Virus record (IMG/VR): IMGVR_UViG_3300028920_000026 | Coordinates: 64,001-128,000 of that record | Source of the DNA: a virus | Length of the DNA stretch: 64,000 nucleotides | Reading direction: 5' to 3' (one strand) | In this document: piece after piece, positions 14,529 through 37,768 of the stretch | Position numbering within the stretch: the stretch's first letter is position 1 | Layout of the letters: the number at the start of each line of letters is the position of its first letter | Position numbers and translations under genes: made by a program | Notes under the pieces: generated by a model | Database searches by the model: none | Told to the model about the DNA's origin: nothing | The model's input: only the letters and a program-made list of their open reading frames with translations

Positions 14529-14777
14529 ATGGCAAGAAAAGTTGAGGTTGAAGACAGCGAGCCAAAGGACGTCGAAGAACGCATCAAGATGTATCTGAAT
14601 GGCGTCGTTGACGCAGTGTCCCAGCGAGCTGGGCGCATCTACGAGCCGAGCCTCGAACAATATAGGTACCAGAACGACTACGATGCTGGGTACGAACGTG
14701 GCAAAGAAGTGAGGTTATCTGAGGTCGATTACGCCCGAATCGTGTGCTCGCGAGAAGAAGCTAAAAGCATCCCATAA
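14529..14777 (+). CDS. hypothetical protein
   Basis: 82-aa ORF. Last gene before the first tRNA array. Confidence 0.45.
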   Translation: MARKVEVEDSEPKDVEERIKMYLNGVVDAVSQRAGRIYEPSLEQYRYQNDYDAGYERGKEVRLSEVDYARIVCSREEAKSIP

Positions 14778-14785
14778 GAAAAACC

Positions 14786-14821
14786 TGTGTACATGGGCCC
14801 TGAAGTGTGATACTGTATACT
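14786..14821 (+). promoter_or_regulatory. conserved promoter-like element with extended -10 (TGTATACT)
   Basis: TGTGTACATGGGCCCTGAAGTGTGATACTGTATACT. A near-identical copy is at 30451-30486. Both sit just 3' of a CDS stop and about 300 nt upstream of a tRNA array. Confidence 0.45.
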
Positions 14822-15082
14822 TGTGTGGCGCTCATCTCGCTTCACTTCATTCGGAACAATGACTACCGTAACGCAAAAGAAGATCGCTTGGCGCAAAGAG
14901 CGTCAGGTCGAGATCTATGTTGCGGATAATCGCAAGCAGGAGGAAAAGGTCATCTAGATTCCGAGTTACACACAGACTTTGTCAAGGCTCGGAAGAAGAT
15001 TCCGAGCCTTGATGCGTTTTGGGTAGTTGAATGATAATGCATTCGTATTGGTTCGTTACCAAACTATCGCACCAATAAAGAA

Positions 15083-15104
15083 ATTTTTTCTTTGTTCCTT
15101 GACA
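15083..15104 (+). promoter_or_regulatory. conserved TTTGTTCCTTGACAAC motif 15 nt upstream of the first tRNA of array 1
   Basis: Same 16-mer recurs at 30750-30770, again 14-15 nt upstream of the first tRNA (tRNA-Pro) of array 2. Confidence 0.4.
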
Positions 15105-15118
15105 ACTTGTTCGTACTT

Positions 15119-15205
15119 TGGTGCAGTAGACTCGTATGGAGCGAGACCTGACTGTAAATCAGACATCATTGTGATCATCGATCGGTTCAATTCCGACCTG
15201 CACCA
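15119..15205 (+). tRNA. tRNA-Tyr (GTA), long variable arm
   Basis: Acceptor GGTGCAG/CTGCACC, anticodon loop CTGTAAA, long variable arm, T-loop GGTTCAATTCC. Confidence 0.6.
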
Positions 15206-15213
15206 CACCACAT

Positions 15214-15286
15214 TCCTCGGTAGCTCAACTGGTAGAGCGCCCGGCTGTTAACCAGGTGGTTGCAGGTTCGACTCCTGCCTGGGGAG
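15214..15286 (+). tRNA. tRNA-Asn (GTT)
   Basis: Acceptor TCCTCGG/CTGGGGA (2 GU), D-arm GCTCAACTGGTAGAGC, anticodon loop CTGTTAA, T-arm GCAGGTTCGACTCCTGC. Confidence 0.65.
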
Positions 15287-15368
15287 CTGAGAAATCACTC
15301 GTCAGTAACGTACGACGTAAAGGTCATTCTGAATGACTGAGAACGTGAAAAATGAGTGTAAATTCTCT

Positions 15369-15439
15369 TGGGGTTTAGTTTAATGGTAAAATGTCAGGCT
15401 CTGAACCTGAAGATCTGTGTTCGATTCACAGCACTCCAA
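15369..15439 (+). tRNA. tRNA-Gln (CTG)
   Basis: Anticodon stem TCAGG/CCTGA with loop CTCTGAA. T-arm CTGTGTTCGATTCACAG. One acceptor mismatch. Confidence 0.5.
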
Positions 15440-15486
15440 CAAAGCTAAAATGTCCACATTGTGATCATACGTTTACAAAACATGAC

Positions 15487-15559
15487 GGGCTAGTCGGTTA
15501 ATTGGTTAAACCACCAGACTCTTAATCTGGGACTGTGGGTTCGAGTCCCACCTGGCCTA
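15487..15559 (+). tRNA. tRNA-Lys (CTT)
   Basis: Acceptor GGGCTAG/CTGGCCT, D-stem GGTT/AACC, anticodon stem CCAGA/TCTGG loop CTCTTAA, T-arm GTGGGTTCGAGTCCCAC. Confidence 0.6.
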
Positions 15560-15638
15560 CAACGTTGAAATTTCTTTGACACTCGTGTGTAAAACTTGTA
15601 CACCAGTGGTACACTGAATGTAGGAGAAGCACAATACG

Positions 15639-15956
15639 TTGGTATCAATCACCAAACGGATTGGCATTATCGGTGAATTAGCGATTGCTCAAGATCTTGT
15701 TGTACGAGGTTTTGATGTCTTTACTTCGATAGGCGACAATTCAAAGGTAGATTTGGTTGCTTTACGTAAAACGCAAACGTTTCGCATTCAAGTAAAGACG
15801 GTCAAAAGGGTAACGAGCGTTGTTCCTGTTGTTGGATTGAAATACGTAGCAAGAAAACATGTCTTGTATAATACTGCAGATGTTGACGTAATTGCAATTT
15901 ATGTTATCGAACAACGCATTATCGCATACGTACCGATGCATGAGTTGATGACTTAG
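15639..15956 (+). CDS. YraN/UPF0102-like small PD-(D/E)xK nuclease
   Basis: IGELAIAQDLVVRGFDVF...SKVDLVAL matches the GxxxExxA...G....GE(I/V)DL(I/V)A core of YraN-family endonucleases. AT-rich island inside the tRNA array. RBS AGGAGA upstream. TTG start. Confidence 0.5.
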   Translation: MVSITKRIGIIGELAIAQDLVVRGFDVFTSIGDNSKVDLVALRKTQTFRIQVKTVKRVTSVVPVVGLKYVARKHVLYNTADVDVIAIYVIEQRIIAYVPMHELMT

Positions 15957-16045
15957 AACAAAACAGGTCAATGTCATTAAGGATAACTCAATCAAAAATT
16001 GTCAAATTAAGAGAATGAAGTATCTAAAAGATTATGTAGAATTTC

Positions 16046-16118
16046 CCCCACGTAGCGTAACGGATAGCACACCTGACTACGAATCAGGAGAGTGAAGGTT
16101 CGAATCCTTTCGTGGGGT
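16046..16118 (+). tRNA. tRNA-Arg (ACG)
   Basis: Acceptor CCCCACG/CGTGGGG, anticodon stem CCTGA/TCAGG loop CTACGAA (A34 would require deamination to I), T-arm GAAGGTTCGAATCCTTT. Confidence 0.7.
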
Positions 16119-16120
16119 CT

Positions 16121-16193
16121 GCGGAGGAGTGAAATGGTTTACACACTGGGCTCATAACCCAGGAACAGCGAGGTTCGACTCCCGTCTCCGCTA
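16121..16193 (+). tRNA. tRNA-like, anticodon CAT, defective T-stem (possible pseudo-tRNA)
   Basis: Acceptor GCGGAGG/TCTCCGC, anticodon stem CTGGG/CCCAG loop CTCATAA. The T-loop TTCGACT is present but flanking bases form only 2-3 bp. D-stem also poor. Confidence 0.35.
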
Positions 16194-16195
16194 CG

Positions 16196-16396
16196 ATGGC
16201 ATTTATAAGGAAAAAGAAGCTGCAGGATGATGAAGGCTCAAAGAGAGAGGAGGTTCCGTTCGATATCGTAGAAAAGGAGGTTACGATGTCAGATGGTTCT
16301 GTCATCAGCTTTCCGGTGAAGGTCTACAACACTCTTGATCCACACCGGAATGTGCAGGGAGCTGCACAGCCGACGAATGCGTGGACTCATGAGTAG
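16196..16396 (+). CDS. hypothetical small protein
   Basis: 66-aa ORF starting at ATG immediately after a tRNA-like gene. Could be spurious. Confidence 0.2.
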   Translation: MAFIRKKKLQDDEGSKREEVPFDIVEKEVTMSDGSVISFPVKVYNTLDPHRNVQGAAQPTNAWTHE

Positions 16397-16399
16397 TAT

Positions 16400-16473
16400 T
16401 GGCACATGGTGTAGGTGGTTTCGCACGCCTGCCTGATAAGCAGGAAGATAGGGTTCAACTCCCTGTGTGCCAA
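16400..16473 (+). tRNA. tRNA-Ile (GAT)
   Basis: Acceptor TGGCACA/TGTGCCA, anticodon stem CCTGC/GCAGG loop CTGATAA, T-arm TAGGGTTCAACTCCCTG. Confidence 0.65.
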
Positions 16474-16728
16474 CTCTGCGAAGTAACCGAGCTCTTAGCG
16501 AGCAGTAGAACTACATGGTGTAATGTTTGCATACCAGGCGGAAACCTGGCGGTGTGGGATTCGAACTCCGCTGCAAGAAGGTGAACAGGCAGACACTCTA
16601 CAACGTAGAAGTGTTTAGATAGATCGGTGCTGTGTCATCCGCGTCGAGCGGGATCCCGCAGGTGTAGCAAACCTGCTCTTTGTCGGCGTAATAGCGTGGT
16701 TCAAGTACAGGCCACGTCACGTAAAATT

Positions 16729-16803
16729 GGTCCTATCGTCTAGTCCGGTCAGGACGCCAGACTCTCACTCTGGAAACGGCGGGTTCAAATCCCCCTAGGG
16801 TCA
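16729..16803 (+). tRNA. tRNA-Glu (CTC)
   Basis: Layout parallels E. coli tRNA-Glu (GGTCCTA TC GTCT ... GGAC). Anticodon stem CCAGA/TCTGG loop CTCTCAC. T-loop TTCAAAT. Confidence 0.6.
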
Positions 16804-16963
16804 CGGGTGGTTGGCTTCGAAAAAACGACAAGAAGGACGGGTCCAGCGCGTCTAACTCTTCTAGATGCAACGGGAACGGGTTGTTTTTCGGTGGGTTCGA
16901 TTCCCACTCGCCCAGCCATTTGGCTCCGTTTAATTCCCCTCGGAACTACGACAAGTAACCGTC

Positions 16964-17036
16964 AAATCGTTTAGTGTAGTGGACGCACCGTTGGCTCATA
17001 CCCAACAAGGTCAGGTTCGATTCCTGTAACAGTAGT
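16964..17036 (+). tRNA. tRNA-like with anticodon CAT (Met/Ile2-type), imperfect acceptor
   Basis: D-arm GTGTAGTGGACGCAC, anticodon stem GTTGG/CCAAC loop CTCATAC, T-loop GGTTCGATTCC. Acceptor pairing weak. Confidence 0.4.
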
Positions 17037-17049
17037 GAAAGTCAGCTAT

Positions 17050-17122
17050 GGGTCGTTGGTGTAACGGTTTAGCATTTCGGTTTCCAAGTCCGAAGATCAA
17101 GGTTCAAATCCTTGGCGACCTG
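17050..17122 (+). tRNA. tRNA-Trp (CCA)
   Basis: Acceptor GGGTCGT/GCGACCT, anticodon loop TTCCAAG between TCGGT/TCCGA, T-arm CAAGGTTCAAATCCTTG. Confidence 0.65.
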
Positions 17123-17283
17123 CGATTATATCGACGATGTAACAAGTGTTTCTACATGGAAGTAGCTTCTGGGTGTGAAAGGAGACCAACCCTTGCGACC
17201 TTCAATCGCGGAATCTTGGTCATCAGCGTGGAGCGTTCAGATGTTGTACATTAGCGGTTGTCTCGGTCTTTTTCTCCCTGAAT

Positions 17284-17354
17284 GGGTCACTGGTGCAACG
17301 GCAGCATAGCTGGCTCTTACCCAGTCGATCTCGGTTCGAATCCGAGGTGACCCA
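17284..17354 (+). tRNA. tRNA-Lys (CTT), second copy
   Basis: Acceptor GGGTCAC/GTGACCC, anticodon stem GCTGG/CCAGT loop CTCTTAC, T-arm CTCGGTTCGAATCCGAG. Confidence 0.55.
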
Positions 17355-17355
17355 C

Positions 17356-17427
17356 TGCGCGATGGAGCAGCCCGGTATTGCCAGTCTCATAAGCTGGAGG
17401 TCGCAGGTTCGAATCCTGCTCGCGCAA
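17356..17427 (+). tRNA. tRNA-Met (CAT), fMet-like D-arm
   Basis: Acceptor TGCGCGA/TCGCGCA, GAGCAGCCCGGTA D-region like initiator tRNA, anticodon stem CCAGT/GCTGG loop CTCATAA, T-arm GCAGGTTCGAATCCTGC. Confidence 0.55.
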
Positions 17428-17431
17428 CAAT

Positions 17432-17507
17432 GCCGATGTAGTTCAGCTACGAGAGAGCGACGGGCGTCCTGGCCCGTGAGTCCCTGGTGCAACCTCAGGC
17501 CTCGGCG
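17432..17507 (+). tRNA. atypical tRNA-like gene with 8-nt anticodon loop and variant T-loop
   Basis: Acceptor GCCGATG/CCTCGGC (6/7 bp), D-arm GTTCAGCTACGAGAGAGC, anticodon stem ACGGG/CCCGT enclosing CGTCCTGG (8 nt), T-arm CCTGG-TGCAACC-TCAGG (G55 instead of T55). Confidence 0.35.
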
Positions 17508-17586
17508 CGGCGATCTAGCGAAATGACATCACACTGGTATGCATAGGACCAGGTTCCTAGTTTGAGCCTGGGGATCGCCACAATGT

Positions 17587-17659
17587 GTCTCCGTAACTCA
17601 GTGGACAGAGTGCCACGCTTCGAACGTGGTGGACGTGGGTTCGAATCCTACCGGGGATG
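17587..17659 (+). tRNA. tRNA-Arg (TCG)
   Basis: Acceptor GTCTCCG/CGGGGAT, D-arm ACTCAGTGGACAGAGT, anticodon stem CCACG/CGTGG loop CTTCGAA, T-arm GTGGGTTCGAATCCTAC. Confidence 0.7.
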
Positions 17660-17801
17660 CGGTTATAACGAAGTAACAGTACCCTCTCACGTTAAGAGAG
17701 GGCATACCCAAGGTGAAAGGTCTCCGGCTATGATTATTTGGGTCCTTGTCCGGTTCGACAGAGGCGCAAGCAGGGGTGTTGAGACCTCTGGCCCAGCAGT
17801 A

Positions 17802-17874
17802 TGGGGCTGTAACTCAATTGGGAGAGTGCCAGCTTTGCAAGCTGGAAGTTGCGGGTTCGAACCCCGCCTGCTCC
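17802..17874 (+). tRNA. tRNA-Ala (TGC)
   Basis: Acceptor GGGGCTG with the G3:U70 Ala identity pair. Anticodon stem CCAGC/GCTGG loop TTTGCAA. T-arm GCGGGTTCGAACCCCGC. Confidence 0.7.
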
Positions 17875-18043
17875 ACTGGTGATGAGTAACTCTCGGATCG
17901 CTGGAACGTCCGGACCTAACGCAAGAGGTCGAATGTGAAAGTCACCAATAATCTCAAGTGTCTGTGGATGACAGGAGGATCTGTTAGTGCTGCAGATACG
18001 ACAAGTAACCTAACAAACGGGCCCGGCGGAGGATGCCGGTGGA

Positions 18044-18067
18044 CTGCACTTCGGTGCAGCGTGTTTT
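18044..18067 (+). terminator. terminator-like hairpin with TTCG tetraloop and T-run
   Basis: CTGCAC-TTCG-GTGCAG followed by CGTGTTTT, located inside the tRNA array just upstream of tRNA-Asp. Confidence 0.4.
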
Positions 18068-18082
18068 GGAGGTGAAAGTGTT

Positions 18083-18154
18083 GGTTCCGTCGTTTAGTGG
18101 TTAGGACATCTCCCTGTCACGGAGAAGACGAGGGTTCGATTCCCTTCGGGACCG
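18083..18154 (+). tRNA. tRNA-Asp (GTC), CCA encoded
   Basis: Acceptor GGTTCCG/CGGGACC, anticodon stem TCTCC/GGAGA loop CTGTCAC, T-arm GAGGGTTCGATTCCCTT, then GCCA. Confidence 0.7.
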
Positions 18155-18197
18155 CCAAGCCTTTTTAGAGGGAGCTCTGTACGAACAAGTTGTTGGC

Positions 18198-18408
18198 AAT
18201 CGAGCAGACCGGGTGATCGCCTGATTCGTCAGGAGGAAAGTCCGGGCACCGTAGAGTAGGACGCCAGATAACGCCTGGGTACAGTGATGTACATCGACGC
18301 AACAGAAAGTAAACCGCCTTCGGGTAGCTGCTTGAACCTATCTGTGAGGATCGGCCTAGATGAATGATCACCCTCGACAGAATCCGGCTTACAGGTCGGC
18401 TCGAAGCC
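18198..18408 (+). ncRNA. rnpB: RNase P RNA, bacterial type A catalytic domain only (no specificity domain), ~205 nt
   Basis: AGGAGGAAAGTCCGGGCACC (CR-I/P4 5' strand), GGACGCCAGATAACGCCTGGG (P15), CAACAGAAAGTAAACCGCC (cf. E. coli CAACAGAGAGCAAACCGCC), GGCCTAGATGAATGA (CR-IV/P4 3' strand), CGACAGAATCCGGCTTACAGGTCGGCTCGA (CR-V plus P1 3' strand). P1 TCGAGCAGACC/GGTCGGCTCGA. P2 GGGTGATC/GATCACCC. P3 CCTGA-TTCG-TCAGG. AAACCGCC is joined to GGTAGCTGCTTGAACC by a TTCG tetraloop where E. coli has the ~150-nt P9-P14 region. Confidence 0.8.
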
Positions 18409-29082: not shown

Positions 29083-29651
29083 GCGATGAACTGACGTTGA
29101 GGAGACACTTGGCCTCTGCACTATCGAGCGACGATGATCGTTCGAAGCTTCGTGCAGGAGAGCTTCATGCGCTTCTTGGTGAATTCACAGACGCATATAA
29201 GATGTTCACACAGGCAACGCAGTCAAAGATCGAAGAGGTCAGGTGGGTGGCGTTGGTGAAGTTGGCAACGGCGATGAAGTTCATTGGTTGTTTCTCTCTT
29301 GAAAAGATGCTTGAGCCTCTCATGGATGCGTACGAGCTACGTCCACGGTTTGCAGATCCCCTCATCGTCGCGTCACAGTTCTGTAGAGAGGCAGGAAAGG
29401 TTCATACCGCGTTGCTGTTCTCGACTACGGCGATCGGTATCCCGATGCCAGACGATACGCGAGATCCTGATGTCTATGCGTGGAAGACGGTCTACGAATA
29501 CGCTCTGTGTGCAGCGCAGGTCCCTATATACTACGAGAACGCGCTGGGTGCGTTCAATGAGATACTTTCTCGTAACGACATCCGCCTCCCAGACGCTGTA
29601 CGAGCATCGTGCGTTGCCGAGCGACAGAAGCTTTTGGAGGATTTACCATGA
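29079..29651 (+). CDS. hypothetical protein
   Basis: 190-aa ORF, overlapping start and stop. Confidence 0.5.
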   Translation: MSDELTLRRHLASALSSDDDRSKLRAGELHALLGEFTDAYKMFTQATQSKIEEVRWVALVKLATAMKFIGCFSLEKMLEPLMDAYELRPRFADPLIVASQFCREAGKVHTALLFSTTAIGIPMPDDTRDPDVYAWKTVYEYALCAAQVPIYYENALGAFNEILSRNDIRLPDAVRASCVAERQKLLEDLP

Positions 29652-30442
29652 AGAACGTTGTTGAACGTGTTAAGAACGGTGAAGCGTTGTGGTCGTGGCG
29701 AAAGATCACGATCAAACCACACAACCCACCTGACGAGCTCGAGAGCGCTGTGCTCGAGGTGAACGTTATGCGCGATGCGATGCGTCTCAAGAATGACAAA
29801 GGGCAGTGGATCAGGTTTCCTGTCACCGCGATCGAACAACAGCAGATCGCTGATGTTGTTGGTGGAATCTTTCATACAGAACGTACACAGGACGAACGGC
29901 ACTTGGCTGCAACTGCGCTGTTTGATCCGATCATTCAGGTTCCACCAGGCAGCGGTAGGATCGTCGCAACATCACACGAGGATGACTACAACAGGTATGT
30001 AGACCAAGCGATCGAGAAGACAGGAGACGATGGTATCGTGAGCTCTGTAGGCAAGCCTTGGACGCTTACAAACAACATGGTAAAGCAGCAACGTCATGGG
30101 CTTCAGACAGCGTACAACTACGGATGGCACTCACACAGTGCCATTTATACGGGTCCGGGTGGAATGCGCGTTTGGCAACCTGTGATCAATCCGATGTCAA
30201 AATACATCCATAACAACGTACACAAGGATCCATCACAGGTGTGCGAATTCCTGTCGCGCAGTGCAACAATCATTGATGGTCAGGGGTCACAGACGTTTGT
30301 TGATCTTATAGACGTCTATCAACACGACATTTGGTGCCACTTTGTAACGTACGACGGTAAGTCTCTGAAGCACGTTCGACAGCCTGCTGTACCTGAAATC
30401 AAAGGTACGATCGTACTTCCACCAATCGAGATAACGTCCTAA
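29648..30442 (+). CDS. hypothetical protein
   Basis: ATG at 29648 (ATGA overlap). 264 aa. Confidence 0.5.
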   Translation: MKNVVERVKNGEALWSWRKITIKPHNPPDELESAVLEVNVMRDAMRLKNDKGQWIRFPVTAIEQQQIADVVGGIFHTERTQDERHLAATALFDPIIQVPPGSGRIVATSHEDDYNRYVDQAIEKTGDDGIVSSVGKPWTLTNNMVKQQRHGLQTAYNYGWHSHSAIYTGPGGMRVWQPVINPMSKYIHNNVHKDPSQVCEFLSRSATIIDGQGSQTFVDLIDVYQHDIWCHFVTYDGKSLKHVRQPAVPEIKGTIVLPPIEITS

Positions 30443-30450
30443 GAAAAAGT

Positions 30451-30486
30451 TGTGTACAAGGGTACTTGAGTGTGATACTGTATGAT
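30451..30486 (+). promoter_or_regulatory. second copy of the conserved promoter-like element (extended -10 TGTATGAT)
   Basis: TGTGTACAAGGGTACTTGAGTGTGATACTGTATGAT. Paralogous to 14786-14821. Confidence 0.45.
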
Positions 30487-30680
30487 CGTGACCGCAGTTG
30501 GCGGTTTGGACGGTTTCATCAATGCTACGTCTCACCACATCAACAGGACCGACATCGAGTGTAAGAACCTCGATAAGGCTCGGTTTGTGTGTGGTCATGC
30601 CGTCCGTCAGTCCATCGACGCTCCCCCATACGGGGACGTTTAAAAGCTGACATAGGCCCCATATTTCGGGCTAGAAAAGA

Positions 30681-30735
30681 CAGGGCGTAGCGTAAATTGG
30701 GGACGTGTCTGTAGGTTCGATTCCTGCCGCCTTGG
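30681..30735 (+). tRNA. anticodon-arm-less tRNA-like minihelix (~55 nt)
   Basis: Acceptor CAGGGCG/CGCCTTG (7 bp), TA, D-arm GCGT-AAATTGGGG-ACGT, then directly T-arm GTAGG-TTCGATT-CCTGC. No anticodon stem-loop. Confidence 0.35.
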
Positions 30736-30749
30736 CTGATAAAGGAAGA

Positions 30750-30770
30750 AAATTCCTTTGTTCCTTGACA
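30750..30770 (+). promoter_or_regulatory. conserved TTTGTTCCTTGACAAC motif upstream of tRNA array 2
   Basis: Identical 16-mer to 15089-15104. tRNA-Pro starts 14 nt downstream. Confidence 0.4.
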
Positions 30771-30784
30771 ACCTACATTCTCTT

Positions 30785-30858
30785 CGGGGCGTAGCTCAGT
30801 CTGGTAGAGCACGTGCTTTGGGAGCACGGAGTCGCACGTTCGATTCGTGTCGCCCCGA
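30785..30858 (+). tRNA. tRNA-Pro (TGG)
   Basis: Acceptor CGGGGCG/CGCCCCG, D-arm GCTCAGTCTGGTAGAGC, anticodon stem CGTGC/GCACG loop TTTGGGA, T-arm GCACGTTCGATTCGTGT. Confidence 0.7.
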
Positions 30859-31022
30859 CATAAGCCTATGTTTTGAGCATTTTTCTGTACCAACAGATTG
30901 TTGAATCCTATTCACTGCACCATCGAGAATCTACTCATGCCTACCCTGTCATGTCACTCCGATCAAGGCGCAATAGTGATGCGCTTTCCAATTCTGCCGA
31001 TGGCTCATGACTCGTTTTCGGC

Positions 31023-31268
31023 GTGAATAAGGAGAGTTTTGACTTGTCGGCCAGCCAAACTGCAGTGCGTATTTTGAACAGTCTGTCTGGGGTCTTCGTT
31101 GACAAGGTTTTACAGGCTGAAGATGCACACCAGGTGTTCGTTCGTGCTCGATTCGAGCCCACCAGCCTGCGCAGAATCCAAGCGAGGTTTCAAGCAGAGT
31201 TGGGACTCAACGACGCGCACGTGGTGCGCGTGCCCCCAACGCTTCAAAGGAATCCTCGCCTGATTTGA
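31023..31268 (+). CDS. hypothetical small protein
   Basis: 81-aa ORF between tRNA genes. Weak. Confidence 0.3.
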   Translation: MNKESFDLSASQTAVRILNSLSGVFVDKVLQAEDAHQVFVRARFEPTSLRRIQARFQAELGLNDAHVVRVPPTLQRNPRLI

Positions 31269-31330
31269 TGTGATGATATGGTATCGGTGGGCCTGTAGAG
31301 CATCAGCACTGTTCCGGGACGCACACACAT

Positions 31331-31403
31331 TAGGGTGTAATGTCAGCGGCAGACGGCCTCCCTTGGAAGGAGGAGGACGTGGGTTCGAGTCCCACCTCCC
31401 TGA
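31331..31403 (+). tRNA. tRNA-Pro (TGG)-like, imperfect acceptor
   Basis: Anticodon stem CCTCC/GGAGG loop CTTGGAA, D-stem TGTC/GACG, T-arm GTGGGTTCGAGTCCCAC. Acceptor TAGGGTG/CTCCCTG has a mismatch. Confidence 0.5.
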
Positions 31404-31405
31404 CG

Positions 31406-31942
31406 ATGTTGAATGATCTAAAATGGGTACGAGTCATTGAACCACACAGGACGATCGCAAGGCAGTTTGCGCACATGCAGGGTCTTTCGATGAAACATCA
31501 CGGAAAGGACTATGACGATTGGAGGAACGTTCAGGGTATGCTCGGTGAGGTCGTCCTTGCACAGATGCTCGGTTGTCTAAAGACGTGGCGCGAACACAAG
31601 GTTGAAACGCTCGCTTTGGACGCAGCATGGGACGGTGGGTACGACATGGCCTTCAACAATGTTCGTATCGATTGTAAGACGATCGCGTTCAGAAACCCGA
31701 ACAAGGTCGCCGACCTTCACCTTTACAGGGGCGACCACGAAGGCTGCGATGTGTATGCAGCGATGCTGATCAACGAGGCTGAACTCATGAGAGAGAAGGA
31801 CCTCCATAGCATCGATTGGATCGACAAGGTCTGGTGTGCAGGGTGGATAAACAGAAACTCGTTCACACAGCGTCACATGGGAAGGCTGCGTTTTCCATTT
31901 AAGGGTCTTCAACGCATAGATGAAATGGTTTTGTCGCGGTAG
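31406..31942 (+). CDS. hypothetical protein
   Basis: ATG right after the tRNA. 178 aa. Stop overlaps the tRNA-Phe 5' end. Confidence 0.5.
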   Translation: MLNDLKWVRVIEPHRTIARQFAHMQGLSMKHHGKDYDDWRNVQGMLGEVVLAQMLGCLKTWREHKVETLALDAAWDGGYDMAFNNVRIDCKTIAFRNPNKVADLHLYRGDHEGCDVYAAMLINEAELMREKDLHSIDWIDKVWCAGWINRNSFTQRHMGRLRFPFKGLQRIDEMVLSR

Positions 31943-32005
31943 CTCAGTTGGTAGAGCGCCTGCCTGAAGAGCAGGGCGTCGGGGGTTCGAACCCCTCCCG
32001 CGGCA
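31933..32005 (+). tRNA. tRNA-Phe (GAA)
   Basis: Acceptor GTCGCGG/CCGCGGC, D-arm GCTCAGTTGGTAGAGC, anticodon stem CCTGC/GCAGG loop CTGAAGA, T-arm GGGGGTTCGAACCCCTC. Confidence 0.7.
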
Positions 32006-32028
32006 CAGAATGGATACTTATCGTCAGA

Positions 32029-32562
32029 ATGGCAAAGAAGGACGACAAGGAGGTTGTGCCTGTCAACTTGATCAGCCCAAGCGAATCGAACTGGCCAAAA
32101 AAGAGCGTGACAAGTGCAAGCGACTGGCTGAAGAACTGGGCTGGGTTGCTGACTGCCGTCGCCGCGCTGCTGGCATCAGGCGGAACATACCTGCGTCCTT
32201 CGGAGGATCCAAAGTACAAGGAGTCGTATGAAGTTCTAAAGGAAAGGTACGACGATCAAGTCGAGGATATCGAAAGGCTCGAATCAAACGTCAAGTACCT
32301 CTATAGGCTTCGAGAGGAAGAGGACAGGACAAGACGAGTTGCGGCTACGCTTGAAACGTCAGCGTATGAGATCGAGGACAACATCCTCCGGCGGGAGCTC
32401 GAAACAAGGTACGGTAAGAAGTTCGCTGATGAGTACATGGACAAACGAGCAAAGAATAGGCGAGAGATCAGACAGGAATATGTAGGGAAGCTCAATAGGA
32501 AGCCACCGAGGGTACATGACACAATAGGCAAGAAGCTTCCACCCTATGGGCAGAAGGAATGA
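32029..32562 (+). CDS. membrane-anchored coiled-coil protein
   Basis: ATG 32029. TM segment WAGLLTAVAALLASGG followed by charged helical region. Confidence 0.5.
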   Translation: MAKKDDKEVVPVNLISPSESNWPKKSVTSASDWLKNWAGLLTAVAALLASGGTYLRPSEDPKYKESYEVLKERYDDQVEDIERLESNVKYLYRLREEEDRTRRVAATLETSAYEIEDNILRRELETRYGKKFADEYMDKRAKNRREIRQEYVGKLNRKPPRVHDTIGKKLPPYGQKE

Positions 32563-32631
32563 CGACGTGGCCGAGAGGCAAGGCACCTGGCTGCAACCCA
32601 GGCAACGCTGGTTCGAATCCGGCCGTCGTCT
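32561..32631 (+). tRNA. tRNA-Cys (GCA)
   Basis: Acceptor GACGACG/CGTCGTC, anticodon stem CCTGG/CCAGG loop CTGCAAC, T-arm GCTGGTTCGAATCCGGC. Confidence 0.65.
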
Positions 32632-32657
32632 CCGCGTAAATTAGTATTGAACTGAAT

Positions 32658-32692
32658 CCGGATGGGTTCGAGTAAGAAAGATGAAGTGGTGC
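32658..32692 (+). repeat. imperfect direct repeat copy A (GGATGGGTTCGAGTAAGAAAGATGAAGTGGTG)
   Basis: Matches 32951-32984 (GGATGGATCCGTGAAAGAAAAATGAAGTGGTG). The pair brackets a ~290-bp tRNA-containing segment. Confidence 0.6.
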
Positions 32693-32719
32693 CGAGTAAG
32701 GGCTATTGGTCCCGCGACG

Positions 32720-32808
32720 GGAAGCATAACCTATCCTTGGCGGAATTGGCATACGCGGACTGTCTAAAACAGTTTGCCTGAAAGGGCGTGCGGGTTCGAG
32801 TCTCGCAG
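32720..32808 (+). tRNA. tRNA-like element with long variable region (class II-like), boundaries unresolved
   Basis: Clear T-arm GCGGG-TTCGAGT-CTCGC, stem-loop ACTGT-CTAAAAC-ACAGT, GCC-TGAAA-GGC extra arm. No convincing 5' acceptor partner for AGGACTG. Confidence 0.3.
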
Positions 32809-32830
32809 GACTGAAGGTGAAAGGTACGTC

Positions 32831-32902
32831 GCTGGTGTGGTGATAATGGCAGCACGGTTCCCTGGTAAGGAACAAGCATGAGTTCGATTCTCGTCTCCAG
32901 CT
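32831..32902 (+). tRNA. tRNA-Thr (GGT)
   Basis: Acceptor GCTGGTG/CTCCAGC (one mismatch), anticodon stem GTTCC/GGAAC loop CTGGTAA, T-arm ATGAGTTCGATTCTCGT. Confidence 0.6.
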
Positions 32903-32950
32903 CGCGTAAGTTTTATCGAACTACATAATGATGTATGTTTAATGCAATTC

Positions 32951-32984
32951 GGATGGATCCGTGAAAGAAAAATGAAGTGGTGAA
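32951..32984 (+). repeat. imperfect direct repeat copy B
   Basis: See 32658-32692. Lies immediately upstream of the 32988 CDS start and contains its RBS-like AAGAAA. Confidence 0.6.
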
Positions 32985-32987
32985 AAC

Positions 32988-33749
32988 ATGATATTTAGAA
33001 ATATCATGACGCCTAAAGAGAAGGCAGAACACTTCCATGCGCTCAACAAGGACGGAAAGTGGAAGCCACGGGATCTCAAGAAGTTCGACGTCAAGAAACG
33101 TAACATCGAAGGACTCGGTGAGAGGTACTACGCGATCCCGGAGTCTCGAGAGGCGTACGAACGCCTGCAGTCGAGCAGAGGTATTGGTATCGCAAGCTGG
33201 GATGACATGGTCAAAAAGGTGAAGGGCCATGGGCTATCGCCGTTCCAGAAACAGCTCGTCCAGCAGGTAAACGGATACGCAAAGACGCACCCTGTCTATG
33301 ACAATGAGAAGGGATACGTTGAGGTTGGGTTCAGGTACCCTGCGATGATGGAACACTTCAAGAAGAAGTTCAAGTTTGTCAGAGGGTACGATATCGCTCC
33401 ACCTTCGATCGCAGTCGCTCAGCACCTTGGCTACGACGTCCACTTACACGACATCAGTGATGTAGGTGACCCAATCGACCTTAAGGACGTCAGGCTTCTC
33501 TGTGCACACGAGGTGTTTGAGCATACACCAAACCCCATTGACGCACTAACAAAGGTCTACAATGCTGCCGACGATGGAATGTTCATCCACCTCAGCGTTC
33601 CACTGCAGTCAGGTCGTCCGAAGATCCAGTTCGCTCACCTGTGGGAGTTCAAGAAGGGCGACATCGAAAAGATTCTTAAAAGAGTCGGTTGGAACGTTAT
33701 CAAGGTCAAGAAGGTGAATCACTCAGAGGTTGCCTTCGCAAAGAAGTGA
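32988..33749 (+). CDS. putative class I SAM-dependent methyltransferase
   Basis: YVEVGFRYP (motif I-like), DIAPPS, LLCAHEVFEHTPNP (motif resembling the FDxVxxxxVLEH block of Methyltransf_11/12). Confidence 0.5.
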   Translation: MIFRNIMTPKEKAEHFHALNKDGKWKPRDLKKFDVKKRNIEGLGERYYAIPESREAYERLQSSRGIGIASWDDMVKKVKGHGLSPFQKQLVQQVNGYAKTHPVYDNEKGYVEVGFRYPAMMEHFKKKFKFVRGYDIAPPSIAVAQHLGYDVHLHDISDVGDPIDLKDVRLLCAHEVFEHTPNPIDALTKVYNAADDGMFIHLSVPLQSGRPKIQFAHLWEFKKGDIEKILKRVGWNVIKVKKVNHSEVAFAKK

Positions 33750-34224
33750 GTGTAAAATGACAGATGATGATGACATCAAGGCTGCGCAGTTGAGGAACGC
33801 TCGCATCAAGGAATGGAGCGTCATTATCGGAATCGTTGCGTCAATCGTCCTCGGCGGGTTTTCCTATTTCAAGGAAGAGAAGGAAGACACGGCAAAGAAG
33901 GCGTACATTGAGGTCACAAAGCAGCTTGAAACAGCATCGCGAGAACGTGTGCAGCTCCAAAAAGACCTTGCATCGATCAGAGGATACCTTGCTGCGAAGT
34001 CTGAACGTCCTGTCAAGCTGCGCATCGATCCAGAGGACACAGAGAGCGCAGTGACGCAGCTCGCTGACGCAGCACGGCCAAGGGTAACGTACAGAAATGC
34101 GCCGTCTCCAGCCCCGACGATTGAAGTTGCCGCAAGCCCAGCGGAACCCGAAGAGATCCCAGAGCTCGAAGCGGCCGCAGAAGAATATTCGGCACCTCCC
34201 GTTGAGGAACTTGTTGCTGAATAA
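33730..34224 (+). CDS. membrane protein with Pro/Glu/Ala-rich C-terminal tail
   Basis: TM helix WSVIIGIVASIVLGGF then coiled region and PAPTIEVAASPAEPEEIPELE tail. Confidence 0.45.
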   Translation: MPSQRSECKMTDDDDIKAAQLRNARIKEWSVIIGIVASIVLGGFSYFKEEKEDTAKKAYIEVTKQLETASRERVQLQKDLASIRGYLAAKSERPVKLRIDPEDTESAVTQLADAARPRVTYRNAPSPAPTIEVAASPAEPEEIPELEAAAEEYSAPPVEELVAE

Positions 34225-34244
34225 GCGCAAGAGAAGTAACCTAC

Positions 34245-34316
34245 GACGCAGTAGCTCAGTTGGTAGAGCGCCGCCATGGTAGGCGGAGGTCGTCGGATCG
34301 AAGCCGACCTGCAGAA
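34245..34316 (+). tRNA. atypical tRNA-like gene (6-nt anticodon loop, A54 in T-loop)
   Basis: D-arm GCTCAGTTGGTAGAGC canonical. Stem CCGCC/GGCGG encloses ATGGTA (6 nt). T-arm GTCGG-ATCGAAG-CCGAC. Acceptor only ~4 bp. Confidence 0.3.
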
Positions 34317-34334
34317 GGTGAAACACTTGGGCGC

Positions 34335-34407
34335 GCTGGGTTAGTTTAACTGGTTAGAATCACTGCCTCGTAAGCAGTAGGTCCGGGTTCGACCCCCGGT
34401 CCCAGCT
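34335..34407 (+). tRNA. tRNA-Thr (CGT), CCA encoded
   Basis: Acceptor GCTGGGT/TCCCAGC, anticodon stem ACTGC/GCAGT loop CTCGTAA, T-arm CCGGGTTCGACCCCCGG, then TCCA. Confidence 0.65.
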
Positions 34408-34411
34408 CCAC

Positions 34412-34484
34412 GCCTCTATAGTTCAACGGCATAGAATAATCGGTTTGTACCCGATTGATTCCGGTTCGAATCCGGGTGGAGGCT
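34412..34484 (+). tRNA. tRNA-Thr (TGT)
   Basis: Acceptor GCCTCTA/TGGAGGC, anticodon stem ATCGG/CCGAT loop TTTGTAC, T-arm TCCGGTTCGAATCCGGG. Confidence 0.65.
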
Positions 34485-34512
34485 CAATTGAACTTGCATT
34501 ATACTTATTGAT

Positions 34513-35100
34513 GTGGCAAGTTCAAAACATCGAAATCAGTGGACGACCAAAGATTGGGATTCTATTGAGTTTAATGAACTTTCGTGGAGAAAAAAACGAG
34601 AACGTCTTTTTCGTGTAGCTAATTACGCATGTCCAATTTGCGGGTTTAACAAACGTAGACATGATGGTCGTCATGTTTTAGAAATTGATCATATCGATGG
34701 AGATCATTCAAACAATACAGAAGAAAATTTGCGTGTACTTTGTCCAAATTGTCATGCACTTACGCCAAATTTTCGAAATTGGGGAAGAACAAATAAGAAA
34801 ACATCAAATCGTCTTCGGCGAGAAAATAAGGGATTTGATGAAGTGCGTAAACGTAGAATTGTCGAAGAAAATGCATATGTTGAAATGTTCAAATTGACAG
34901 TTTTATCTGCACATGAAAGTGGAGAAATTAATTTTGCACGCTTTGGATGGGTACAACAATTAAGCGAAAAACTTGGAGATAGGTGCCCGCAAGCGGTCAG
35001 CAGAAGAGTGCAACGATTACTTCCACAATTTTATGTTGAACATTGCTTCATAAGAGGTAAAAAACGCCTACGACGCGAGAATAAAGATTTTAGCAAGTAA
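34513..35100 (+). CDS. HNH homing-type endonuclease
   Basis: CPICG ... HVLEIDHIDGDHSNNTEENLRVLCPNCHA HNH/zinc motif. Markedly AT-rich island embedded between tRNA genes. GTG start. Confidence 0.8.
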   Translation: MASSKHRNQWTTKDWDSIEFNELSWRKKRERLFRVANYACPICGFNKRRHDGRHVLEIDHIDGDHSNNTEENLRVLCPNCHALTPNFRNWGRTNKKTSNRLRRENKGFDEVRKRRIVEENAYVEMFKLTVLSAHESGEINFARFGWVQQLSEKLGDRCPQAVSRRVQRLLPQFYVEHCFIRGKKRLRRENKDFSK

Positions 35101-35101
35101 C

Positions 35102-35173
35102 CTTGAGGTGTTGTAAGTGGTAGCATTATTTGCGTCCAACTTGCGGTAATGGGTTCGAGTCCCATCCCAGGAG
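35102..35173 (+). tRNA. tRNA-like element (T-arm ATGGG-TTCGAGT-CCCAT), anticodon unresolved
   Basis: AGTGGTAG D-loop-like segment and canonical T-arm. No convincing acceptor or anticodon stem. Confidence 0.25.
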
Positions 35174-35965: not shown

Positions 35966-36029
35966 GCACGATCGATTGAGTGGACTGGCTGTGACCCAGT
36001 TATAGCGGGTTCGATTCCCGTCGGGCACT
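35958..36029 (+). tRNA. tRNA-His (GTG)-like with 3-bp D-stem
   Basis: Acceptor GTGCCTG/CGGGCAC, anticodon stem ACTGG/CCAGT loop CTGTGAC, T-arm GCGGGTTCGATTCCCGT. G at -1 but U73. Confidence 0.5.
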
Positions 36030-36090
36030 CCGTGCAATCTTGTCAAAAAGTTGTTATACTTAGTGTATCTACTAACAGCCACTAGCTAGC

Positions 36091-36492: not shown

Positions 36493-36530
36493 CTTTGCAA
36501 GGTATTCAATACTGAAAATAGATAAATGAT

Positions 36531-36601
36531 GTGTCAGAAAGCAAACGGTGAGCTAACTGGTTGTGGCCCAGTTGTACGTGGTTCGACTCCACGCTGACAC
36601 A
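36531..36601 (+). tRNA. tRNA-His (GTG)
   Basis: Acceptor GTGTCAG/CTGACAC perfect, anticodon stem ACTGG/CCAGT loop TTGTGGC, T-arm CGTGGTTCGACTCCACG. Confidence 0.7.
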
Positions 36602-36880: not shown

Positions 36881-36913
36881 CAAATATAAGAGTGGAAAAC
36901 GTAAATGAATTTT

Positions 36914-37765: not shown

Positions 37766-37768
37766 AAG

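Follow-up and report, generated by a model that had tools for sequence, protein, structure and literature searches.

The window, by which we mean the whole 64,000-nucleotide stretch of viral DNA analysed here, carries two arrays of tRNA genes, A and B, each with the same two motifs at its head. The genes concerned are:

15120..18157, + strand: tRNA array A, some 16 tRNA genes (Tyr to Asp) and a few interspersed short ORFs
18201..18407, + strand: RNase P RNA gene of reduced bacterial type A, 207 nt (score 118.5 bits, threshold 100, E 5.6e-36), the distal gene of unit A
30785..42865, + strand: tRNA array B as far as it lies inside the helix described below, tRNA-Pro to tRNA-Gly, with ORFs interspersed

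The first array tRNAs start at 15120 (tRNA-Tyr GTA) and 30785 (tRNA-Pro). The tRNA-Tyr scored 28.2 bits in Rfam, against a threshold of 29, and was missed by ARAGORN. The RNase P RNA was not found in L080, L081, L082, L083, L096, L098, L219 or L220.

The initial annotation had reported the first motif at 14786 and 30451, and both copies are real: a pattern search places them at 14786-14818 and 30451-30483. The pattern, TGTGTACA.GGG....T.AGTGTGATACTGTAT, matched with one mismatch at the former site, with none at the latter, nowhere else in the window and in none of 100 shuffles. The similarity reaches over 51 nt at 80% identity (14775-14825 versus 30440-30490). Each copy begins 9 nt past the TAA of an ORF (14529..14777 and 29609..30442), directly after a CDS stop as had been stated. 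The second motif, TTTGTTCCTTGACAAC, is exact at 15091-15106 and 30757-30772. It had been correctly assigned to both array heads, with starts (15089 and 30755) that need to be moved by 2 nt to 15091 and 30757, and its distance from the tRNA, given as 14–15 nt, is in fact 13 nt in array A and 12 nt in array B. The TTGACA in motif 2 is separated from the tRNA by 16 nt in array A and 15 nt in array B and therefore cannot be a -35 element for a start upstream of the tRNA, in agreement with the earlier statement.

By our estimate, about 0.5 exact 16-mer repeats are expected by chance per 64 kb, so that one such repeat is not rare by itself. What counts is the placement of motif 2 at both sites, 305 nt (array A) and 306 nt (array B) past motif 1 and 12–13 nt before the tRNA, and not the repeat. 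About 250 nt between the motifs cannot be aligned between the two arrays, which excludes a plain recent duplication. BLAST against deposited phages and IMG/VR for close DNA relatives gave generic tRNA hits only, exact-motif scans of IMG/VR gave chance matches with no flanking similarity, and protein-seeded scans for close relatives gave nothing. Both motifs were found again at equivalent sites in related phages whose proteins are just 47–59% identical. This conservation bears out the proposal that the motifs are signals linked to the tRNA arrays, and suggests that they are functional.

Motif 1 could be parsed as a promoter at both array heads, as follows:

14778..14821, + strand: motif 1 of array A, promoter-like (two-block PWM 21.0 and 21.4); read from the sequence, GAAAAA A-tract 14778-14783, TGTACA 14788-14793, 17-bp spacer, TG 14808-14809, TACTGT 14811-14816; overlapping -10 alternatives GATACT 14809-14814 and TATACT 14816-14821
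30443..30486, + strand: motif 1 of array B (two-block PWM 23.4 and 23.3); A-tract 30443-30448, TGTACA 30453-30458, 17-bp spacer, TG 30473-30474, TACTGT 30476-30481; -10 alternatives GATACT 30474-30479 and TATGAT 30481-30486

This parse supports the earlier description of motif 1 as promoter-like with an extended -10. Four copies share TGTACA (4/6 against the -35 consensus), a spacer of 16–17 bp and TGn followed by TACWGT (T1, A2, T6), a weak -35 match with an ambiguous -10 placement. The motif reads as a candidate sigma-70-type promoter with a UP-like A-tract, a -35-like TGTACA, a 16–17 bp spacer and a TG-extended -10, and the transcription start in array A is predicted at about 14823-14828. 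A consensus promoter scan did not list it. In the approximately 200 kb sampled, strict motif 1 was seen only at array heads, namely A and B of the window, B of L080 and A of L096. Shuffled windows gave 0–2 weak hits with the motif 1 PWM, a single weak motif 1-like site lies at 20050, and GTGTACA showed no enrichment as a general promoter word. A degenerate form (A-tract, GTGTRAAMA and -10) precedes the arrays of L082, L087, L096 B, L098, L219 and L220.

The phage sigma factor gene noted at 20505 was confirmed (20505-21356, Sigma70_r2, E 1.3e-20). Its proposed link to the motifs was not supported: a sigma-specific promoter class should precede many genes, but within the 64-kb window strict motifs 1 and 2 were found only at the array heads and were absent from the structural-gene block. 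The sampled region encodes this sigma factor and no phage polymerase was seen in it, so the host core RNA polymerase, the target of Nus factors, is the likely enzyme. Motif 1 would most likely be used by that core polymerase with a sigma-70-family factor.

The leaders between the two motifs contain the following features:

14859..14957, + strand: short ORF of 32 codons (MTTVTQKKIAWRKERQVEIYVADNRKQEEKVI), array A
14980..15020, + strand: hairpin of 15 pairs with loop AAGAAGATT, then CGTTTT, terminator- or attenuator-like, 5′ of motif 2 in array A
15011..15074, + strand: decayed tRNA-Tyr remnant; T-arm TTGGTTCGTTACCAA and ...CGCACCA retained, acceptor unpaired
30488..30680, + strand: array B leader, a candidate structured RNA, non-coding
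30681..30735, + strand: decayed tRNA-Pro remnant; acceptor, D-arm and T-arm retained, anticodon arm deleted

Short ORFs occupy the same place in the leaders of L096 (37 amino acids), L098, L219 and L220. BLASTP found no homology for the small ORF, and the leader peptides are mutually dissimilar, so that their coding status is uncertain. The segment GGCTCGGAAGAAGATTCCG(A/G)GCC of the array A hairpin is nearly identical in L096, and a comparable hairpin with a T-run occurs in L098, L219 and L220. The tRNA-Tyr remnant stands where L096 has an intact first tRNA-Tyr. For the 193-amino-acid gene upstream of site A, a homologue search returned only the gene itself.

The array B leader belongs to an intergenic stretch 82% identical to L080, while the protein encoded upstream is 56% identical. 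The ORFs that overlap it have different reading frames in this phage and in L080. Eight of its 40 predicted pairs show compensatory changes among three sequences; a four-sequence consensus fold was uninformative because MAFFT misaligned L082. It matched no Rfam family, and all seven hits of a metagenome scan with its RNA pattern were attributable to chance. The tRNA-Pro remnant aligns with the intact tRNA-Pro(TGG) of L080. A tmRNA at 30490-30740 was considered and rejected, as neither ARAGORN nor Rfam called one and the tRNA-like part aligns with that ordinary tRNA-Pro. A Y RNA in the same interval was likewise rejected: the lone YrlA hit (30.1 bits, threshold 69) combines the T-arm of the remnant with the D-arm of the next tRNA.

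Motif 2 resembles the boxA element of rRNA (rrn) operons, and a hairpin precedes it:

15074..15096, + strand: boxB-like A/U hairpin of array A, directly 5′ of boxA (-5.6 kcal/mol, z -1.3)
15091..15106, + strand: motif 2 of array A (PWM 25.1 bits), boxA-like core TGTTCCTTGACAA at 15093-15105
30738..30762, + strand: boxB-like hairpin of array B, GAUAAAGGAA / UUCCUUUGUU (-10.9 kcal/mol, z -1.8)
30757..30772, + strand: motif 2 of array B (PWM 25.5 bits), boxA-like core at 30759-30771

The window core TGTTCCTTGACAA agrees at 10 of 13 positions, and the L080 variant TGTTCTTTGACAA at 11 of 13, with the E. coli rrn boxA region, ugcucuuuaacaa (PMC2724277). The boxA-bearing RNA segment may be written as UUUGUUCCUUGACAAC, and the phage copies of motif 2 read ...TTGACAAYCTRCAT. 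In cyanobacteria, the D4 domain directly follows boxA. In cyanobacterial spacers the boxA is GAACCTTGAAAA and D4, a separate conserved domain, is CTGCATA (PMC8461337).

A GTDB scan found TGTTCYTTGACAA..CTGCA at rrn boxA positions. Among the matches listed, the 16S-23S spacer sites, past the spacer tRNAs and about 80–100 nt before 23S, were in L150, L162 and L168 (Verrucomicrobiota), L110 (Lentisphaerae) and L117 (NPL-UPA2), and the sites about 190–210 nt upstream of 16S were in L141 (Mesorhizobium) and in L122 and L157 (Aureimonas). The rrn leader and the 16S-23S spacer are the two canonical positions of boxA (PMC10250234; PMC8632103). Among the matches listed, the L080 variant agrees in every base with the sequence at the boxA position in rrn operons of Verrucomicrobiota, Lentisphaerae and Rhizobiales, and the window copies differ from it at one position. 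The signals had been called phage-specific; motif 2 is instead a copy of a host-type element, down to this identity. The scan was conditioned on the motif, and most matches listed fell in coding sequence, Rhs-like repeats of Chitinophagaceae among them; it therefore establishes this sequence as an rrn boxA in some phyla but does not establish specificity for them. Among the matches listed, rrn operons from several phyla have this core, so that the boxA core by itself does not point to one host.

In an alignment of nine phage copies and four rrn sites, eight core positions were invariant. Within the window, only the two array heads exceeded 20 bits with the motif 2 PWM (the next site, 17.1 bits, is antisense to a gene), and none of the 43 regions upstream of other tRNAs carried the motif. 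The sequence TTGACAAC has 17 copies, mostly inside genes. In L080, L082, L087, L096 (A and B), L219 and L220, the element always separates the first tRNA from the remainder of the array. The array head of L098 has lost the boxA core by deletion, so that at least one relative can do without the element. In each of the nine phage copies, a hairpin runs up to boxA or stops just short of it; its sequence differs each time and its stability is weak (z -0.6 to -2.7), and the best fold in L080 sequesters part of boxA. Hairpin followed by boxA would correspond to the rrn order boxB–boxA. In E. coli, boxB is dispensable. Motif 2 lies on the same strand as the tRNAs, downstream of promoter-like motif 1 and before arrays of 3 and 12 kb. 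We concluded that motif 2 is a putative rrn-type boxA antiterminator and no promoter.

The 3′ flank of motif 2 has a long-range complement at the far end of the array, a feature overlooked in the initial annotation:

15102..15116, + strand: leader arm of the array A helix, ACAACTTGTTCGTAC, overlapping the last 5 nt of motif 2
18179..18193, + strand: trailer arm of the array A helix, GTACGAACAAGTTGT, between the last tRNA and the RNase P RNA gene, 8 nt from the latter
30767..30790, + strand: leader arm of the array B helix, GACAACCTACATTCTCTTCGGGGC, 24 nt, 92% complementary
42862..42885, + strand: trailer arm of the array B helix, GCTCTGAAGAGAATGTAGGTTGTC, followed outside the helix by tRNA-Leu (42890-42975) and tRNA-Ile (43879-43955)

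The array A arms, 3062 nt apart, are complementary at 15/15 positions (-27 kcal/mol), and the array B arms, 12071 nt apart, at 22/24, with 18 perfect (-45.6 kcal/mol); the latter is the top-listed inverted repeat in 13.5 kb. Helices were also found in L096A (13/13) and in L219A and L220A (17/19 each), and duplex energies in the five arrays ranged from -23 to -46 kcal/mol. Random-window controls reached the observed value in 0 of 2000 cases for A, 0 of 2000 for B and 2 of 2000 in a third control. By the perfect-run measure alone, the L219 and L220 helices were not significant (60 and 265 of 2000). The arms differ among window A, window B, L096A, L219A and L220A, and each is complementary to its own trailer; that is, they covary. 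In the rrn operon of L150, the top-listed inverted repeat joins boxA and its flank (2047-2070) to 5155-5178 around 23S (2146-5090), and L162 has the same boxA-anchored helix around 23S. The phage helix is probably an RNase III processing stem. The proposal that the motifs are processing signals thus holds in part, for the 3′ edge of motif 2, which lies in a leader-trailer helix of the kind cut by RNase III in rrn operons.

Motif 2 might then be only the 5′ strand of a processing stem, for RNase III or another enzyme, or a tRNA-maturation signal, with an incidental resemblance to boxA. The position of its 3′ part in the helix would fit, as would the need of tRNA precursors for end processing and the RNase P RNA carried by the phage. 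Yet the 16 nt are identical between A and B while the arms differ, and the trailers pair with only the last 5–6 nt (with a longer, weak pairing at B); the 5′ part, TGTTCCTT, is therefore conserved for another reason, and it is exactly the boxA core common to rrn operons. We regard this explanation as improbable.

Slightly less probable still is the explanation in the initial annotation, that the phage sigma factor or another phage-specific system uses motif 2, and perhaps also motif 1, as a promoter, with a start a few bases before the first array tRNA. TTGACA is present with A/T-rich DNA before it, the motif heads both arrays and a sigma factor is encoded by the phage. Moreover, the terminator-like hairpin between motif 1 and boxA in array A, a point against the boxA reading, means that read-through or a further start is needed, and a fresh start at motif 2 would suit it. 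Against this, any -10 would fall inside the tRNA, and L080 and L096 have the element between two tRNAs, in a spacer of 44–47 nt. The conserved stretch includes TGTTC on the 5′ side of TTGACA and can be matched to rrn boxA position by position, there are just two copies in 64 kb with none before protein genes, and the pairing of the flank with a distant trailer is a feature at the RNA level.

The inverted repeats could also be read at the DNA level, as terminal inverted repeats (TIRs) of mobile tRNA cassettes or as sites for a recombinase or regulator, the motifs being kept as DNA signals. They are short, they bracket segments of 3 kb and 12 kb, genes for HNH and GIY-YIG endonucleases occur within or close to the arrays, and motif 1 holds the palindrome TGTACA. 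We consider this very unlikely: the arms differ between A and B and between phages, yet each is still the complement of its own counterpart; in every case the 5′ arm is continuous with boxA, on the strand that is sense for the tRNAs; and real rrn operons have the same arrangement around 23S. No recombinase was seen in the ORFs scanned. Transposon TIRs in particular were rejected on the difference between the arms of A and B and the lack of a transposase domain in those ORFs. Least credible of all is that one array head was duplicated as a segment and that the motifs are what remains of this event, now without function: the same order, the matching 305/306-nt spacing and a decayed first tRNA at both sites would agree with it, but the sequence between the motifs is unalignable while the motifs are 80–100% identical, and both are kept at orthologous sites in phages with 47–59% protein identity.

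We therefore return to the boxA reading. Each tRNA array is, we think, quite likely a transcription unit whose arrangement follows that of part of a bacterial rRNA operon, with promoter, leader, boxB/boxA and leader-trailer helix, and this 331-kb phage most likely borrows the anti-termination machinery of its host to transcribe and process its tRNAs. In the mechanism that we infer, the motif 1 promoter would start each unit. A leader of about 300 nt would be transcribed next (a short ORF and hairpin in A, a structured RNA in B), then the first tRNA, decayed here. In the nascent RNA, motif 2 would act as an rrn-type boxA behind a boxB-like hairpin. On the model of rrn operons and CRISPR arrays, it would bind host NusB-NusE(S10) and nucleate the assembly of Nus factors on the polymerase. 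The complex would resist Rho, and pausing, over a highly structured RNA of 3 to 12 kb, most of it untranslated. Pairing would join the trailer at the far end of the array to the 3′ end of boxA and the 12–13 nt before the tRNA, and boxA tethered to the polymerase could "deliver" the leader strand to the trailer.

A more far-reaching reading, which we hold only tentatively and consider rather doubtful, makes the arrays true mimics of rRNA operons. They might derive from a captured host "spacer tRNA – boxB – boxA – 23S – trailer – 5S" segment in which tRNAs replaced 23S, and would engage the host complex for rRNA antitermination and chaperoning in its entirety. The leader would be delivered to the trailer for excision by RNase III, Nus factors would be drawn from host rrn operons during infection, and the minimal RNase P RNA of the phage would complete an autonomous module for tRNA production.

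The tRNA arrays of huge phages are many kb long and barely translated and are, therefore, natural targets for Rho termination. In the literature searched, the coverage of which was incomplete, we found no worked-out account of their expression and no earlier description of an rrn-style boxA and helix at phage tRNA arrays. The boxA and leader-trailer helix at the array heads would provide a concrete mechanism. If it is correct, phage tRNA arrays join rRNA operons, lambdoid phages and CRISPR arrays as settings of Nus antitermination. It would also offer an annotation rule, with boxA and its distant complement marking the limits of array transcription units; a possible handle for host prediction, if phage boxA tracks host rrn boxA; and a compact design for the expression of long structured RNA arrays.

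Several known systems can be compared with these arrays. The tRNA cluster of phage T4 is transcribed as a multi-gene precursor with small stable RNAs and matured by RNase P. To our knowledge, neither a boxA nor an array-bracketing helix has been described for T4, and we know of no RNase P RNA gene in it. The nut sites of phage lambda (boxA – spacer – boxB, with N protein) are alike in that a phage carries boxA, and Nus antitermination is proposed here as well. In contrast to lambda, the hairpin precedes boxA, the sequence is nearer the rrn consensus than lambda CGCUCUUA, and the targets are stable RNA genes and not delayed-early mRNAs. A lambda-type nut site was rejected: the hairpin is 5′ of boxA, none lies between boxA and the tRNA, and none of the 20 ORFs scanned encodes an N-like or Nus-like protein.

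Upstream of CRISPR arrays, boxA was shown to keep Rho from ending transcription prematurely, by way of Nus factors (Stringer et al. 2020, PMC7665894). CRISPR and phage elements are alike in standing before a long untranslated repetitive RNA array; the former are on host chromosomes and precede another type of array, with no leader-trailer helix mentioned in the account drawn on here (PMC7665894). Motif 1 resembles sigma-70 promoters with an extended -10 and a UP element (the rrn P1 type) in its A-tract at about -46 to -41, -35-like hexamer, 16–17 bp spacer and TGn before TAnnnT, and differs from them in its -35, TGTACA inside a conserved GTGTACA, and in having three overlapping -10 candidates.

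The closest comparison is with rrn operons, where antitermination and processing involve boxB-boxA(-boxC), leader-trailer helices and a complex, rrnTAC, of NusA/B/E/G, SuhB and S4 (PMC10250234, PMC8632103). The phage units differ from these in being phage-encoded, in bracketing a tRNA array (with ORFs in B), in the distance of about 300 nt, with a leader gene in between, that separates boxA from the putative promoter, and in having no recognised boxC. They share with rrn operons the type of boxA core, the order of hairpin and boxA, the placement after a tRNA as in 16S-23S spacers, the fusion of boxA to the 5′ strand of a helix around several kb of stable RNA, and a further small RNA gene past the trailer, which is 5S in rrn operons. 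Verrucomicrobial rrn operons have an identical boxA-anchored helix, there around 23S.

Both tRNA arrays of the window are preceded by the same pair of motifs, as the initial annotation had claimed, with coordinates that needed slight correction. Motif 1, a promoter-like element after the upstream gene, is found in the window only at 14786-14818 and 30451-30483 (0 matches in shuffles). It is embedded in a 51-nt repeat, 80% identical, that starts at the stop codon of that gene. Motif 2, a boxA-like element before the first array tRNA, occurs exactly at 15091-15106 and 30757-30772. The distance between the motifs is 305 nt at array A and 306 nt at array B, and motif 2 ends 13 nt (tRNA-Tyr, 15120) and 12 nt (tRNA-Pro, 30785), respectively, before the first tRNA. 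The stretch between the motifs could not be aligned between the two arrays; therefore, the conservation of the motifs is selective and not a trace of recent duplication.

The window lies within a 331,213-bp metagenomic phage contig (ENA ERZ27252253 k141_1101516) and has a G+C content of ~50%. It carries 37 to 43 tRNA genes in two co-oriented arrays, 15120-18157 (A) and 30785-43955 (B), and also codes for a sigma-70-family factor, a DNA ligase, an RNA ligase, a release-factor-like protein and baseplate genes. Five tRNA genes were missed by ARAGORN (15120-15205, 16120-16193, 34248-34312, 35958-36029 and 36914-36985). Four of them passed the Rfam threshold, and the tRNA-Tyr, with a long variable arm, scored 28.2 bits against a threshold of 29. 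No DNA-level similarity to the window was found in the deposited-phage collection or IMG/VR, and relatives were obtained solely through protein look-ups. Phage loci L080, L082 and L087 were reached from a 277-aa gene upstream of array B, and L096, L098, L219 and L220 from homology to the sigma factor, which has more than 130 close homologues, many of them carried by contigs 200-370 kb long. The sigma factors of L219 and L220 are ~47-51% identical to that of the window. The release-factor-like gene (37106-37765, plus strand), inside array B, encodes a truncated class-I protein of 219 aa with RF-1 and PCRF domains, and L219 has a tRNA with a CUA anticodon (amber suppressor-type) at 7310-7385. 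Together they hint at stop-codon reassignment in this phage group.

The core of motif 2, TGTTCCTTGACAA, resembles the rrn antiterminator boxA, which is ugcucuuuaacaa in E. coli (PMC2724277). The window copies match this sequence at 10 of 13 positions, with 11 of 13 for the L080 variant, TGTTCTTTGACAA. In cyanobacterial spacers, boxA is GAACCTTGAAAA and a separate conserved domain, D4, is CTGCATA (PMC8461337). The phage copies of motif 2 run on into CT(G/A)CAT. D4 directly follows boxA in the cyanobacterial spacers.

A scan of GTDB, one genome per species, with the pattern TGTTCYTTGACAA, 0-2 nt, CTGCA gave at least 120 matches. Among the matches listed, many are coding sequence, and pattern matches alone are insufficient to call a boxA. 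One boxA-like string, TGTTCTTTGACAACCTGCAGGT, is found many times in a conserved, Rhs-like coding repeat ('VFFDNLQV') of Chitinophagaceae (L103, L108, L121, L169 and others); it also occurs many times in a repeated element of one Thermoguttaceae (planctomycete) genome (L107, L115, L129, L143). Also among the matches listed, one non-coding set with conserved flanks lies within rRNA operons, either after two spacer tRNAs and ~80-100 nt before 23S (three Verrucomicrobiota, one Lentisphaerae and one NPL-UPA2 genome) or ~190-210 nt upstream of 16S (Mesorhizobium, Aureimonas). It is at the 16S leader and the pre-23S spacer that rrn operons carry boxB-boxA(-boxC) (PMC10250234, PMC8632103).

When nine phage copies were aligned with four rrn sites, 8 core positions were invariant. 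Only the two array heads scored >20 bits in the window with a PWM from the phage copies. The third-best match (17.1 bits, ATTCGTCCTTGAAAATTT; 46539-46556, plus strand) lies a little beyond the last gene on the plus strand, is antisense to the first structural gene on the minus strand, and may be due to chance. L219 and L220 have a boxA-like element TGATC(T/C)TTGACAA, again after the first tRNA-Tyr. In the relatives, motif 2 lies within a 44-50 nt spacer between two tRNAs. A decayed tRNA-Tyr is seen at 15011-15074, where L096 has an intact tRNA, and the last ~55 nt of the array B leader (30681-30735) align with an intact L080 tRNA-Pro(TGG), the anticodon arm missing. These decayed first tRNAs place motif 2 between the first tRNA and the remainder of the array at both window sites. 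In the Pro remnant, the acceptor stem is predicted to contain a G3:U70 pair. Every phage copy has a hairpin on its 5′ side (for example, GTGATC-ctcacc-GATCAC in L220); their sequences are unrelated and each is weak individually.

The distal end of the array carries a sequence complementary to the nucleotides that separate boxA from the first array tRNA. We traced this complementarity from an odd minus-strand boxA-PWM match in L098.

Leader arms and complementary trailer arms of the tRNA arrays (final letter, array)
Window A: leader 15102-15116, trailer 18179-18193, 15/15 paired, arms 3062 nt apart
Window B: leader 30767-30790, trailer 42862-42885, 22/24 paired (18 perfect), arms 12071 nt apart
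L096 A: leader 4324-4336, trailer 7868-7880, 13/13 paired, arms ~3.5 kb apart
L219 A: leader 5235-5253, trailer 8452-8470, 17/19 paired, arms 3198 nt apart
L220 A: leader 4632-4650, trailer 7814-7832, 17/19 paired, arms 3163 nt apart

The window B pair tops the inverted-repeat list of its 13.5 kb region. Arm sequences vary between arrays and each complements its own partner (covariation). As a control, random 28-nt windows were compared with the same targets by perfect-run length (2000 trials per array). The observed run was reached by 0/2000 for window A, 0/2000 for window B and 2/2000 for L096 A. For L219 A and L220 A it was reached by 60/2000 and 265/2000, and because these helices contain mismatches, the measure understates them. 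Folds of leader plus trailer ranged from -23 to -46 kcal/mol. The trailer arm always follows the bulk of the tRNAs and stands just before one further RNA gene: RNase P RNA at array A, tRNA-Leu at array B and tRNA-Gln in L219 and L220. In L098, the array head (700-733) has no boxA core (TTTCTTTGTT followed by ATTCGTATTATT), and the trailer (1663-1683) keeps the complement of full CATTGACAACTTGTTCGTATT, a sequence that runs over the stop codon of an ORF on the minus strand. This loss of boxA appears to stem from a recent deletion of 13 nt between TTGTT repeats.

The RNase P RNA (18201-18407, plus strand), directly 3′ of the array A trailer arm, is of bacterial type A and only ~207 nt long (118.5 bits, threshold 100, E 5.6e-36). 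It has lost most of the specificity domain (model positions ~120-205 and ~225-277), and no counterpart was found in eight related loci. So small a phage-encoded RNase P RNA would be unusual, and a brief literature search gave no report of one.

A pure processing stem leaves unexplained the identity between the arrays of the 5′ half of motif 2, a half with which neither trailer pairs. Against transposon-like terminal repeats, the arms at array A are not those at array B of the same genome, and no transposase was found among the ORFs scanned. Functionless duplication does not fit motifs conserved across phages with ~50% protein identity. For motif 2, the initial annotation's option of a promoter for the phage sigma factor fails because of its geometry and copy number, and because its flank pairs at the RNA level.

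Motif 1 is probably a sigma-70-type promoter that is dedicated to the array units, and probably a strong one. Four strict copies (window A, window B, L080 site B, L096 site A) share the form GAAAAA(N2)TGTGTACA, 10-11 nt, (G/A)TGATAC(T/A)GTAT, and a two-block PWM found no others, either in the window or across ~140 kb of loci from relatives. The parse that fits 4/4 copies has an A-tract at about -46 to -41; the -35 is TGTACA (4/6), the spacer is 16-17 bp, and TG and one base precede the -10, TAC(T/A)GT, with T1, A2 and T6 kept. Since alternative -10s overlap it (GATACT, TAT(A/G)(C/A)T), the transcription start cannot be fixed from sequence alone. A looser form (A-tract, GTGT(A/G)AA(A/C)A and a good -10) precedes the arrays of L082, L087, L096 B, L098, L219 and L220. 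If motif 1 were the promoter class that the phage sigma factor uses in general, it would be expected before many genes, and it does not recur in this way. A weak motif-1-like site, GTGTACA-N14-AATACA (or TACATT), lies at 20050-20085 (plus strand), directly after a stop codon and two genes upstream of the sigma factor gene.

The ~300 intergenic nt before array B are 82% identical to those of L080, where the upstream protein is just 56% identical. The two phages do not share the reading frame of the small ORFs called in this region; thus what is conserved is the RNA. A consensus fold of three sequences has 40 pairs, 8 with compensatory changes. The leader RNA has a long-range helix, CACCACA/TGTGTGG, as well as hairpins that show compensatory changes, and it matched no Rfam family.

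Array B leader RNA (~200 nt, apparently structured, non-coding, between promoter and first tRNA)
Window: 30488-30680, plus strand
L080: 10838-11043
L082: 1128-1297
L096: 17690-17884

The array A leader has a 32-codon ORF (14859-14957) and, 3′ of it, a hairpin whose stem and loop (GGCTCGGAAGAAGATTCCGAGCC) are nearly unchanged in L096, then a short T-run. Array A leaders of five phages have a short ORF (16-37 codons, often K/R-W-Q/R), then a strong hairpin and a T-run.

Short ORF, hairpin and T-run in array A leaders
Window: 14859-15020
L096: 4027-4205
L098: 519-690
L219: 4922-5100
L220: 4322-4500

The arrangement is reminiscent of an attenuator with a leader peptide, here preceding a tRNA array.

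Transcription would start from motif 1 and proceed through the leader and first tRNA. A modified polymerase would then pass the untranslated, structured array without Rho-dependent loss, and the emerging trailer would pair with the leader strand to give a stem for endonucleolytic release, followed by tRNA maturation by RNase P and 3′ nucleases. The analysis shows the sequences and where they lie, their conservation and covariation, and their identity with rrn sites; every functional step is inferred. Weak points are the terminator-like hairpin upstream of boxA at array A, the weakness of the hairpins 5′ of boxA, and the loss of the boxA core from the L098 array head.

The order of hairpin and boxA in the phages is that of rrn operons (boxB then boxA), unlike that of lambda; boxB is dispensable in E. 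coli (PMC8632103). Verrucomicrobial rrn operons show the same boxA-anchored long-range pairing as the phage arrays. In one (L150), the top-listed inverted repeat joins boxA and its flank (2047-2070) to 5155-5178, enclosing 23S (2146-5090), and the same pairing was seen in a second (L162). As standard, rrn operons have leader-trailer helices, which are substrates of RNase III, and it has been proposed that the Nus complex, which keeps boxA on the polymerase, 'delivers' the leader strand to the distal sequence complementary to it (PMC10250234, PMC8632103). For the protection of untranslated arrays, boxA ahead of CRISPR arrays is a precedent (PMC7665894). Our literature search, of incomplete coverage, found no report of boxA, boxB or leader-trailer signals on phage tRNA arrays. 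The components, boxA, boxB and the leader-trailer helix, are already known; what would be new is the placement of these rrn-type signals on phage tRNA arrays.
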